Origin: Albugo candida
Taxonomy: Eukaryota
Assembly (NCBI GenBank): GCA_040437565.1
Contig: JBDOQK010000004.1
Location: forward strand, 62,001-126,000
DNA length: 64,000 bases
Reading direction: 5' to 3'
Shown: positions 4,901 to 63,857 of the stretch, in pieces
Numbering within the stretch: the stretch's first letter is position 1
Layout of the letters: each line of letters begins with the position of its first letter
Program-made: the position numbers and the translations under genes
The notes under the pieces: model-generated
What the model was told of the DNA's origin: nothing
Database searches by the model: none
What the model saw: the letters and a program-made list of their open reading frames with translations, nothing else

Positions 4901-5869
4901 ATTTTTCTGAGCGGCTGCCTCAGCCACTTGCCGTTCAAGTTGCGTTGATTGCATTTCATTCATTTTTGCAAGCTCAACGAGCGCCTCGTTCTGACGAGTA
5001 AAGGCTGACTCAGTTTGAGCCTTCGAAGCCCTGAGATGACCAATCTCTCTTCTGAGCGACTCGTTTTCTTTACGGAGTCTCTGGAGCTCAATTTTTGTGG
5101 TCGCTGGAGTTGCCGCCCGGGTGCGCTGATGTGGCTGCTCCTGAATTGGAACATAGCCACCACCAACGCGGCGCATGTTANNNNNNNNNNNNNNNNNNNN
5201 NNNNNNNNNNNNNNNNNNNNNNNNNNNNNNNNNNNNNNNNNNNNNNNNNNNNNNNNNNNNNNNNNNNNNNNNNNNNNNNNGGCTGACTCAGTTTGAGCCT
5301 TCGAAGCCCTGAGATGACCAATCTCTCTTCTGAGCGACTCGTTTTCTTTACGGAGTCTCTGGAGCTCAATTTTTGTGGTCGCTGGAGTTGCCGCCCGGGT
5401 GCGCTGATGTGGCTGCTCCTGAATTGGAACATAGCCACCACCAACGCGGCGCATGTTAAAAGGTGTTAGTCGTGTAGGTTGTCGGATACTCATGTTGTAG
5501 CTGATTTGAAAGTGATATTGGAAGCAGTCAGATGATAAGCATAGAAGACGAAAGAATACGAGAGAAGAAAAAGAACAGCATCATATTGAGCTTTTTATCA
5601 AAGAATTCGGCTTCTCCATTTCCTATAGTAGTTCCTAGTATCGTGATGATACCGCCGAAGGCCCTTGGATTGAGAATTCAGCGGATATATATTAGATGGG
5701 AATTGATTAATTCAAATTTTAGTTGATGGTAAATGACCAGAAATGGAAGTACAATGAAGGAATCGTTTATGGAAGGGAAGGTAAGAAGTTATGTTGTATG
5801 TTGCTGCAATTGGCGACACAGTATTGTACTTGTAACTTATTTCATTTATGTTATGTGTAATGCTTAAAT

Positions 5870-60294: not shown

Positions 60295-63200
60295 ATGGAA
60301 GGAGTATCGTTAGACACCGCTGCTACTAGGATAAAGAGACGTAGATTACTGGACGATAGGCACGAATTGTACTCGAGAAATAACGGTTTTGAATCGGCAA
60401 ATGCAATGCAAGTATTCAATTCCAAGCGAATAAAGCCGCAAACAGATCAGATAAAGACAATAAACACCCCGCTACCACCTGCAATCTTCCCTTCGTACGA
60501 GAATTCCAGCTTGCGAATAAATTCTCATCCAACTTCTGGATCTCGTTTGGCACTTTCCGAAAGTCTACAGACGACTCAACTATCGGATACGGGTATAAGC
60601 GAAGACGCTAAAAACTGTCGTGTTCGACCGGTCGCACAAAGATTGTATTCAAGCAGTACGATGGGCGTTCAGCCGACCGTGGTAGGAGATGATTTGTTAA
60701 TATTGTGATGGGACTCAGTTGGCATATTATATTAGTTTTCAGGTCCATCTGGATTCTGTGTATCAAAGAAAATCAGTGACAGTCATGAAATAGCAAGAAA
60801 CACGGTAAGCAATGTGAAGTTGTCGCTTTTGTCGATTCAGGCGAAAGTCATGTTGCCATATAGAGGATCAAGACATTTGTTGGTCACATGGCTCCTGTAA
60901 ATGAGATACTGCAAAGCAGTACAAGCACCATTCCACGATATCCAATTCCTGTGTCTGTGGACTTTGGAACGATAATGCATTCGGTTCCCTCACATAACAA
61001 TGAGTTTTCGATTGAAGAAGATATAACGTATTCACAGGAAATGCTGCATGATCTATCCGTGCAAGAAACCCAAGCTCATGTGTACCTGGAGTTGGACCAA
61101 GAATTCACAAAAATACTGAATGATGATGAATTGAACAACATGATCCAACTCAATATGACTACAATACCTCTTTCTGATGTCTCAAGTCCCGTTGTGATCG
61201 GTCGTGACAAGTTTAAAGTCGTTTTTGGCGAGCAAATTCGAAAAGCGTCGACTTCACTGCTGAGTCGGAAGCATTGCTTATTTCATGTGAGTAAAATGGG
61301 TGGGAACGGTCCTTCGGGGTATTCTGTTTCCGTCGAAAATACCAGTACCAATGGAATTGAGGTCAATGGCGAACCCGTTCCTCGAGGAAGGACGAAATCG
61401 CTCGCTTGTGGAGATGCTGTGACATTGCTCCGTCTTCCGCAAAGTCAGGTCGGTCTATCATCTCACCTTGTGGATCCACAGAGCTCAACTGCGCACTTAG
61501 GCATTATCGAATCTTGCGATACGCTACACTTTATTTGACGAATCATCACCTGATCCGATCTACAATCATCATGTTGGAAGGCTCCTTGTCGATGAAATTA
61601 GCGTGACCAGTGAAAATCAAGACAATATGGTGATTACTGAGGATGAACGACATGCTCAAAATGTGTCTTTAGTCCAACAAACAAACTCGGGAGAATCATT
61701 TCGATGTGTAAGTGCGTTCCATTGAAAGTCAATTACTTTGACTGAACGCGCTTGTAGTCGGTGATGCTTGCACATTCGATATTGACAGATACGACAGACA
61801 CAAAGGTGAGCCAACGATTTGAGATGCGGAATTTGACTCACAACACGCCTGCTCCAGTTTAGCGATTTCAGAGATGAACTTCATTTGATGCTCTCCCCAA
61901 TTCTTTCGCACGGCTATATACAAGTATGCAAATGTCCAAGTTATTATGTTACATCACCATTCACCACAACTATACAGGTCGATTACGATACAGCAACGGA
62001 GACAGCATTGGAAAAAGCTGTGCAAACGACAGATTTAGTGATATTGGCTGAAAGTACGAGTACCTCACAAATGCAACAGATGCAAGGAATGACTTATAAT
62101 CCACTAGTAAAGCACTCGTTGGATCGACGTGGAATTATTCTGGTGAACGAAAATGGACTTCCGGAAACTCTCGAGAATACAAAGCTCAGAGAAATATGCC
62201 AAGGTATGGCAGCATACACGTTTAGTACGCCAAGTGACACACCTTCCTCATTCGGTCATTTATAGCGGCAGCACCGTCCAAACTTATCGTCGTTTTGTCG
62301 GAAGACTCTTCATGTGGTATGTTGGCATCGTATTTTCTCGAAATCATATTGAGACTCAGACGCCATACAGCAAAATCTCTTTTCGCTTGTGGAATTCCTC
62401 GTGTCATTTACGCGACTTCAAAGAACAAATACAGGCGACAAGTCGGTACTTTTATCCGGTACGAAAATGGCAAGTACTTTGGGCAACCCTTTCTGACCAT
62501 ACGCTTATCAGAATACTTATCGGTGGAATACTTCATGAATTCTCAATGAAGATGTGTTTTGAAAACGCTAAAAGTATGGCCTTCGAAGATTCAAAAACCA
62601 AAGACCAAAGTTTCGATCAAGTTGAGCTCTTCTCGACATTCAACGACCATACTGCCGTCCAAACCGAAGCAAAACAATTCAACACAAAGTGGGAAACCAT
62701 CGTAAAACAGAACTTTGTCAGCCTGAGCTCCTTCGTACTTCCCGATCCACCCGAACGTCTCGTTGATCGTAATCAGGAGATCGCCGAGGTATTTTTTCCC
62801 ACCTTCTGCCTCCAACTTTGTTGTATTCACCGTCTTACTACAGATTGTCAACTTTATAAGAACAAGTCCAGCTCGAGTGTGCAACTTGCATGGCCAGGAA
62901 GGTATCGGGAAGTCGACTATAGCTATTCACGTGGCGAAATACATCAGTCGGATGGTACGTTGCTCTCAAAGCATTCAGTATATATCACTTGGAGATTACG
63001 AGCGGAATATTCTCACCGAACAAGACGTCACCAATGTGGAGGCCACGTACGATTTCAATGTCGCGCTATTGAATCAGCTTCACAGCGACATTGAGGAGCT
63101 CAATACAGCCGTCAAGATGTGCGTTGTTGACTCCTATTTCCGCACAACTAAAGTCGAATGTACTGGCCGTTAGGGACGACTCGAGCTCGAGACTATTAAT

Positions 63201-63688
63201 TCTCGATGGCTGTGATTTCTATGTGGAAGCTCCAATTTGTGATTTTGTATCAGAGATCCTGCGTCAGTTTCCGAGCATGAAAGTGAGTATTCGACACAAC
63301 CAGTAACTTTATTCACTCTTTTGTATGCTTTAGATCATAACAACGTCAAGAAACAAGCTGCCGATCACCTCACAGACTTTAGCGAATGTCACCATAGGTT
63401 TGGAAATTCATTCTCTTACTGAAGAAAGCGCTGCAAAACTACTGATTGCATACTGCGAGGAGCCAATCGTCCGAAACAAATTGAAGAAATGTAAGTGGAA
63501 TTTCACATTGCGTGCTTTCGACATCTCCGTATTCATTGTTGATTGCAGCATCCGCGGACTGGCAATCTGACGACATGATCACTGTTATTCAGCAGCATCC
63601 AGCGGTAAAGCGTCTTCGTGGGAACCCATCACTACTGCGTCAATTAGCGCGCGAAATGCCGACAAAAGCAATGGATGAGCTCATTTGA
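60295..63688 (+). CDS. FHA + degenerate CHAT-like + STAND (NB-ARC-like) P-loop NTPase, multi-exon
   Basis: FHA (VIGR, LSRKH, STNG, GD), LPDPPERLVDRNQEI, Walker A LHGQEGIGKST, Walker B LLILDGCD, IITTSR, L..LTEESAAKLL, GNP.LL. Confidence 0.8.
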
Positions 63689-63857
63689 AGGGAATGCACA
63701 CAACAAGTACGATAAGACGGTCATTGTAATTGTAACACAGAAAATCGATCGAATTTGTCAGAAGAATCGACGGCACAATCAATTGAAAACGCAAATCTAT
63801 TGCGGCTGCACAGCTTAAAATCAGTAAGGCGATTTGAAGAAATAAGCATCCGCTACT

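Follow-up and report, generated by a model that had tools for sequence, protein, structure and literature searches.

A 64,000-nucleotide stretch of the Albugo candida genome (NCBI GenBank assembly GCA_040437565.1, contig JBDOQK010000004.1, positions 62,001 to 126,000 of the forward strand), which we call the window and in whose own numbering all positions are given, carries a gene for a protein that joins a forkhead-associated (FHA) domain, a CHAT (caspase/HetF) domain and a NACHT-like NTPase. By sequence comparison, this gene is a fast-evolving paralog of a conserved FHA-CHAT-NACHT protein, and it lacks the His-Cys dyad of the CHAT domain. We consider the encoded protein to be, with a probability of roughly one half, a non-catalytic adaptor or regulator that would act in a phosphorylation- and nucleotide-dependent manner, most likely in the pathway of its active paralog.

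The state of the dyad was read from an alignment of 38 proteins, comprising nine members of the clade to which the A. candida protein belongs (the dead clade) and 29 other relatives. The two catalytic columns hold H and C in all 29 of the other relatives and in 0/9 of the dead-clade members. The corresponding positions in the window are as follows:

62032-62109, forward strand: strand DLVILAE and the catalytic His position, here an Ile codon interrupted by intron 62054-62107
62280-62306, forward strand: strand KLIVVLS followed by ED, with the catalytic Cys position as an alignment column

The original prediction had read ILAES and LSED where the His and Cys motifs were expected. Its loss of the dyad is borne out across the clade, and ILAES has to be withdrawn, as that reading runs into the intron and the mature protein has ILAEI (ILAEIKH). 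At the Cys column, all nine dead-clade rows carry a one-residue gap and no Cys (LSED in A. candida). As the dyad is absent from 9/9 members, the protein appears to be CHAT-derived by descent and not a functional clan-CD peptidase. Could it still be a peptidase that uses substitute catalytic residues? In A. candida a Cys lies four residues past the lost one (LSEDSSC) and a His lies in ILAEIKH, so both stand near the canonical sites, and the Cys is common to A. laibachii; however, the His is missing there (MAEVKSS), and neither residue is conserved in the other seven dead-clade members. We regard such a peptidase as very improbable.

These readings depend on the exon structure of the gene, which comprises the following segments:

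60295-63688, forward strand: whole gene of Albugo candida, 15 exons, 876 codons plus stop
60295-60681, 60736-60804, 60864-61448, 61501-61707 and 61758-61805, forward strand: exons 1 to 5
61858-61923, 61978-62053, 62108-62203, 62266-62316 and 62371-62458, forward strand: exons 6 to 10
62512-62788, 62844-63118, 63174-63282, 63334-63490 and 63549-63688, forward strand: exons 11 to 15
62054-62107, forward strand: intron kept in the public annotation; joint 62053>62108, GT..AG, in the contigs of runs X1 and X4

All 14 introns are short (50-62 nt each) and of the GT..AG type, and one of them (62317-62370) follows directly after LSEDSSC. A contig of run X1 (3515 nt, depth 61) spans 60250-63750 with all 14 introns removed; run X4 gives the same joints in pieces, and a contig of run X7 is colinear with the genome and keeps the introns. 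Since a contig free of all 14 introns has the appearance of spliced mRNA, we read the X1 form as the transcript, the assignment of X1 and X4 to RNA being a program's guess at their kind and not on record. As the FHA and NTPase exons lie in this one contig, both are carried by a single spliced molecule, in agreement with the single transcript that had been assumed for them. Once joined, the exons read without interruption for 876 codons, beginning at ATG 60295 and reaching the stop codon at 63686-63688, and this start is backed by the A. laibachii ortholog (P0002), which also begins with MEGVS and is 65% identical to the 876-codon model.

The corresponding public protein (P0001; hypothetical protein ABG067_000845 [Albugo candida], 857 aa) is 100% identical to the longest exon, which encodes the FHA domain, and 97.8% identical to our model across 857 aligned columns, in which the retained intron shows up as the one gap. 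More specifically, P0001 begins at an internal Met 37 codons 3' of ATG 60295, thereby skipping 60295-60405, and gains 18 residues, STSTSQMQQMQGMTYNPL, from the retained 54-nt intron. The insert is absent in the A. laibachii ortholog and sits exactly at the former active-site loop. Both AlphaFold2 (AF2) models described below were built on P0001 and thus include the insert, as a low-confidence loop.

The middle domain occupies the following segment:

61699-62662, forward strand: CHAT/caspase-fold pseudo-protease domain, with seven introns inside

Pfam gave no family on this region at E <= 1, and no CHAT match for P0001, P0002 or P0003. Its AF2 model (predicted local distance difference test [pLDDT] 81.1, predicted template modeling score 0.80) follows the caspase order of strands and helices. 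Foldseek ranked the SAVED-CHAT filament 8tl0 first (E 1.2e-7), with caspases next. Likewise, the VIA-wide comparison, which is independent of Foldseek, gave Z 16.0 to 8tl0_A (root mean square deviation 3.7, 189 residues aligned), followed by DdvA (11.4), 7zoq (11.3), separases (~10) and caspases (~9). The peptides on which a CHAT pattern had initially been proposed proved to be exons of one frame-consistent model with this caspase-like fold.

Homology to proteins that Pfam does recognize points the same way. Aligned by hhalign, the dead-clade profile matched that of the active clade, i.e., the FHA-CHAT-NACHT proteins that keep the dyad, with probability 100 and E 1.9e-58 over 647 columns, which excludes chance. 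The Pfam CHAT family scored 24.3-39.3 bits in 5/5 scanned active-clade proteins, and also 32.1 bits in the active A. candida paralog P0201 (cut-off 24). When a profile built from three family members was run against 1.84 billion representatives, 1252 matches at E <= 0.001 came back, and many of these cover both the middle region and the NTPase in a single stretch; among 39 such relatives scanned (E <= 0.001), CHAT was found in 34, NACHT in 29, NB-ARC in 17 and SH2 in 6. A language-model feature search placed CHAT on 13 of 30 matches, which we take as a lead only. Judged by its profile relatives, its homology to the active paralog and its predicted fold, the middle region is a CHAT domain.

The dead clade comprises proteins of two Albugo species (A. 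candida and A. laibachii), Plasmopara, Peronospora matthiolae, Pythium oligandrum, P. insidiosum, Phytophthora cactorum and, as a partial sequence, P. aleatoria, along with further records. Named members of the active clade come from 11 oomycete genera, namely Albugo (both species), Pythium, Globisporangium, Phytophthora, Nothophytophthora, Peronospora, Hyaloperonospora and Peronosclerospora, and also Achlya, Saprolegnia and Aphanomyces. Its members, for example P0201, A. laibachii AlNc14C5G771 and Globisporangium ultimum K3WVI5, are annotated only as "FHA domain-containing protein." A. candida thus carries both the dead gene and an active paralog. The two share a collinear order of FHA extension, FHA, CHAT and NTPase, a DGCD Walker B motif and an end shortly after the GxP motif; unlike the dead gene, the active paralog keeps SGHG and SAC, passes the Pfam cut-off for CHAT and mostly that for NACHT.

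The two clades differ in pace. Over the CHAT-NTPase part, full-length active-clade proteins of the peronosporalean genera and Albugo are 59-97% identical to the Globisporangium query. Within the dead clade, Albugo shares just 24-27% identity with the other genera. A maximum-likelihood tree made by a quick method, for which the program warns of long-branch joins, puts each clade on one branch with a Shimodaira-Hasegawa-like approximate likelihood ratio test value of 100. The dead-clade stem measures 2.61 and its internal branches are long, with a path of ~3.9 changes per column from Albugo to Pythium, and the active-clade branches are short. A word-profile search with the dead-clade alignment returned only two Albugo proteins, was swamped by 8000 low-information candidates and is uninformative on distribution.

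Such a pace, together with the loss of both catalytic residues, would also be expected of a functionless duplication relic in slow decay. The contigs of four runs differ from the window at 24 sites within the gene (60471-63224), of which 13 are non-synonymous, 8 synonymous and 3 intronic; the excess of non-synonymous over synonymous differences fits a relic, as does the loss of the sensor-1 Arg described below in 4/9 members. A relic is nevertheless quite improbable to us. Its 876-codon frame is open over 15 exons, its 14 introns are spliced in a contig of depth 61, the residues of the FHA, Walker A, Walker B and GxP motifs are invariant in 8/8 members, and at least five named genera (Albugo, Plasmopara, Peronospora, Phytophthora and Pythium) still have a member of the clade, a retention that argues for a function.

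The N-terminal part of the protein, which would confer dependence on phosphorylation, is laid out as follows:

60295-61020, forward strand: N-terminal region of ~200 residues, predicted disordered, with two short introns inside
61023-61190, forward strand: folded extension N-terminal to the FHA domain, with motif ITYSQEMLHDLSVQE at 61023-61067
61191-61536, forward strand: FHA domain (PF00498), interrupted by intron 61449-61500

The first segment aligns poorly among orthologs, and AF2 gave pLDDT <50 for P0001 residues 1-163. From residue 170 on, the model shows helices and strands with pLDDT climbing to >90. Within the extension, S172, Q173, L179, S180 and V181 (P0001 numbering) are invariant in 8/8 dead-clade proteins, and the SQ is also found at the same place in the active-clade consensus, the two clades being aligned there by hhalign. 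The SQ in ITYSQEMLHDLSVQE could be either an SQ-type kinase site or purely structural.

Against PF00498 (cut-off 20.7), the FHA domain reached 30.2 bits when the exon was scanned by itself and 26.9 bits within the whole protein. GR, SxxH and NG are the conserved phosphothreonine (pThr)-binding residues of FHA domains, and the three motifs reported in the original prediction were found in place: VVIGRD at 61191-61208 (GR at 61200-61205), SRKH at 61263-61274 and TNGIE at 61347-61361 (TNG at 61347-61355). In the 876-residue protein, they correspond to G265 R266, S286..H289 and N315 G316, and all are invariant in 8/8 dead-clade members. AF2 folds this part into a beta-sandwich of strands with pLDDT >90, which Foldseek matched to the MEK1 FHA domain (5yyx, E 8.7e-7). 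A sequence search of the PDB with the single protein found no match, and a search with the profile found only weak FHA matches, with CHFR at E 0.0023.

These matches raise the alternative of an adaptor for checkpoint or stress signaling within a Rad53/Chk2/CHFR-type kinase pathway, in which the SQ would be a phosphosite and the CHAT and NTPase domains would serve as non-proteolytic scaffolds. The invariant SQ (8/8 in the dead clade and present in the active-clade consensus), the restriction of PDB sequence matches to the FHA domain of proteins such as CHFR and the fold match to the MEK1 FHA domain are all consistent with it. However, the SQ lies within a predicted folded helix and so is perhaps structural, and FHA domains are found in many pathways; we rate this alternative as rather unlikely.

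The C-terminal third of the gene contains the following:

62738-63685, forward strand: NACHT-like NTPase of the STAND (signal transduction ATPases with numerous domains) type, consisting of nucleotide-binding domain and helical lid only, with four introns inside
62762-62779, forward strand: VDRNQE, with the conserved Arg upstream of the P-loop (GRxxE-type); Arg in 27/27 rows, R625 invariant
62892-62918, forward strand: Walker A GQEGIGKST; G, G, G, K and S invariant in 8/8
63193-63216, forward strand: Walker B LLILDGCD; DGCD invariant in 8/8, DSCD in the further member P0008
63334-63351, forward strand: sensor-1-like IITTSR; Arg in 5/9 dead-clade and 16/17 active-clade rows
63620-63688, forward strand: GNP (GxP lid motif, 63620-63628), 19 residues and the stop; G836, N837 and P838 invariant

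Walker A, Walker B, TTSR and GNP, as well as a stop about 20 residues further on, had all been noted from the sequence, and all are there. The STAND assignment made along with them was not refuted, NACHT being the best Pfam family, just under its cut-off of 26.7 (24.2 bits, matching positions 1-165 of the 167 in the profile; NB-ARC 18.2), and three orthologs lying at or above the cut-off (26.9 bits in A. laibachii, 31.9 and 29.2; others 17.0-22.0). Leipe et al. in 2004 reportedly named as STAND features a Walker A, an hhhhDGxD Walker B, an upstream Arg, a sensor-1 Arg and a GxP motif. All five are present in A. candida, and four of them, the sensor-1 Arg being the exception, are invariant in 8/8 dead-clade members. 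In the full-length AF2 model (pLDDT 71.3), which has three folded domains and a disordered N-terminus, the NTPase forms an alpha/beta core followed by short helices to the C-terminus.

The protein ends early, and the family ends with it. Neither a winged helix nor C-terminal repeats (LRR, WD40, TPR, ANK) were found in the A. candida protein, and each of 27/27 FHA-CHAT-NTPase rows (nine dead-clade, 17 active-clade, one from Gefionella) ends 0-23 residues past the column of the last A. candida residue. As all rows end so soon after GxP, the missing winged helix and repeats are a family trait and not a truncation, which extends the originally noted absence of repeats to the family as a whole. For want of such repeats, the A. 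candida protein is NLR-like only, NLR being the nucleotide-binding leucine-rich repeat class of receptors.

Taken as a non-catalytic adaptor or regulator, the protein would be unable to cleave substrates. Through its FHA domain it would dock onto a partner phosphorylated on Thr, nucleotide binding by the intact P-loop would lead to self-association or co-assembly, and the dead CHAT domain would act as a binding surface. The pathway of the active paralog, as the most likely target, would be tempered or scaffolded in the style of cFLIP and caspase-8. A complex prediction for the dead and active CHAT domains of A. laibachii (score 0.01, mark 0.34), which was run without alignments or controls, counts neither way. 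Somewhat further along this line, we can tentatively picture an oomycete "mini-apoptosome" pair, in which a conserved FHA-CHAT-NACHT protease, brought to cluster by Thr phosphorylation and not by a repeat sensor, would be accompanied by its rapidly evolving dyad-less twin as a co-assembling, cFLIP-like brake or specificity subunit, together forming a kinase-gated, caspase-type proteolytic or cell-death switch; we think this fuller picture unlikely as it stands.

Several points weigh against the adaptor reading. The quick tree does not settle whether the two oomycete clades are sisters. The ratio of 13 non-synonymous to 8 synonymous variants is a hint that constraint is weak, chiefly in the disordered N-terminus (7 of the 13 non-synonymous sites fall in the first 200 codons). 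The NACHT score of the A. candida protein itself is below the Pfam cut-off. Foldseek matched the NTPase part of the full model to Apaf-1, CED-4, RPP1 and NRC3 amid RFC, p97, NtrC and ORC at similar E-values, and given this mixture, fold alone does not tell STAND apart from other AAA+ ATPases. Four of the nine dead-clade members (P0003, P0004, P0008 and P0011, i.e., the Plasmopara/Peronospora group and one further record) lack the sensor-1 Arg, which Albugo and Pythium keep, so that part of the clade may no longer hydrolyze nucleotide. Lastly, without a winged helix, an ADP-locked STAND switch cannot work as it does in Apaf-1 and NLRs.

More distant relatives bear on a further alternative. They include bacterial CHAT-NACHT/NB-ARC-TPR proteins, SH2-bearing proteins and EukProt transcripts of Gefionella okellyi and Yihiella yeosuensis; in precomputed Pfam assignments, bacterial and metagenomic relatives carry CHAT alongside NACHT, NB-ARC and TPR. 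The protein might accordingly be an autonomous NLR-like conflict sensor directed at viruses, hyperparasites or other non-self, with its FHA domain, its dead CHAT domain or both as bait or sensor and its NTPase oligomerizing, and with no link to the active paralog. This would suit the very long branches within the dead clade, the presence of CHAT in 34/39 relatives and its combination with NACHT, NB-ARC and TPR on those of bacterial and metagenomic origin. Excerpts of two studies tie the CHAT plus STAND architecture to immunity in bacteria and fungi (PMC8195603, PMC10197012), and those of the former list FHA and caspase as N-terminal modules of bacterial STAND proteins (PMC8195603). Yet the gene has no second copy in the window, the protein has neither a repeat sensor domain nor a winged helix, and no catalytic effector is left in it. 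Moreover, no PADLOC defence model matched any of three dead-clade proteins at E <= 0.01, and a single weak match, to SAVED_CHAT (E 8.8e-4), was obtained with the active A. candida paralog. We consider a conflict sensor possible, if unlikely, and retain the adaptor reading as the preferred one.

Two observations on the distant relatives deserve mention in their own right. SH2, found in 6/39 of the distant CHAT-STAND relatives (P0042, P0235 and others), is a second phospho-peptide reader on a CHAT-NTPase module, and these fusions suggest that gating by a phospho-reader may be a recurrent design. The non-oomycete protein P0046 of Gefionella okellyi has a weak FHA profile match (12 bits), an intact CHAT dyad and an end soon after GxP; given P0046, the short architecture may be older than the oomycetes or may have been transferred.

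The surroundings of the gene are incompletely assembled. The window contains 21 runs of exactly 100 N (e.g., 5181-5280 and 60112-60211), which are draft scaffold gaps; the run at 60112-60211 ends 83 nt before the ATG, so that the promoter and the 5' untranslated region (UTR) are incomplete. At the other end, the spliced X1 contig leaves the window, continuing for 767 nt after 63750, and the additional sequence belongs either to a long 3' UTR or to an overlapping neighbor transcript. No second copy of the gene was found elsewhere in the 64-kb window, and paralogs outside it were sought via protein databases only. Upstream, on the same strand, lie two neighbors:

56856-58646, forward strand: Gpi16 subunit of the glycosylphosphatidylinositol transamidase, Pfam 326.6 bits
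58903-59517, forward strand: open reading frame with a sulfotransferase domain, Pfam 37.7 bits

Neither neighbor has an evident link to the FHA-CHAT-NTPase gene.

Our literature searches found no description of an FHA-CHAT-NACHT architecture in oomycetes, which agrees with its having been called uncharacterized there, and on CHAT pseudo-proteases they returned only unrelated pseudo-proteases. New here are the pair of active and dead paralogs, the family-wide short nucleotide-binding oligomerization domain and the corrected gene model. In bacteria and fungi, CHAT-NLR proteins are coming to be recognized as switches of immunity and cell death that are armed with a protease; for oomycetes, which include major crop pathogens, nothing comparable was found in the literature searches. 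An FHA-CHAT-NACHT protein that has neither winged helix nor repeats and is conserved in the sampled oomycetes of both main lineages implies a different trigger logic, in which a phospho-reader replaces the repeat sensor. With its dyad-less paralog retained beside the active one in at least five named genera, the pair offers a testable entry to regulated proteolysis or cell death in oomycetes and to the evolution of pseudo-proteases in NLR-like proteins.

Among known systems, the CHAT-NLRs of bacteria and fungi resemble the A. candida protein in having CHAT directly N-terminal of a STAND NTPase. Excerpts of PMC10197012 link fungal CHAT-bearing NLRs to gasdermins, and FHA and caspase occur as N-terminal modules of bacterial STAND proteins in excerpts of PMC8195603. 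CHAT-NLRs with TPR, WD40 or ANK have the dyad and C-terminal repeats, whereas the A. candida protein has neither and adds an N-terminal FHA domain. Its middle domain resembles SAVED-CHAT (8tl0), DdvA (8rot), Csx29 TPR-CHAT (7zoq/7y9x) and separase in structure (VIA Z 16.0, 11.4, 11.3/8.2 and ~10, respectively) at 7-15% identity, and the regulatory modules, i.e., SAVED, TPR and a transmembrane anti-sigma factor, differ. SAVED-CHAT, Csx29, DdvA and separase are described as proteases. For a partner without catalytic activity, a parallel in logic is cFLIP, an inactive caspase paralog that regulates caspase-8; it has no homology to the A. candida protein beyond the fold and carries neither FHA nor NTPase, and a heteromer of the cFLIP kind would be hypothetical here. 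Finally, Apaf-1 and CED-4, which are among the highest-identity Foldseek matches to the NTPase part (16-19%), share with the A. candida protein the logic of an NTPase beside a caspase-clan domain. In contrast to Apaf-1, which has winged-helix, HD2 and WD40 domains and engages a separate caspase via CARD, the A. candida protein stops after the lid and carries its dead caspase-like domain in cis.

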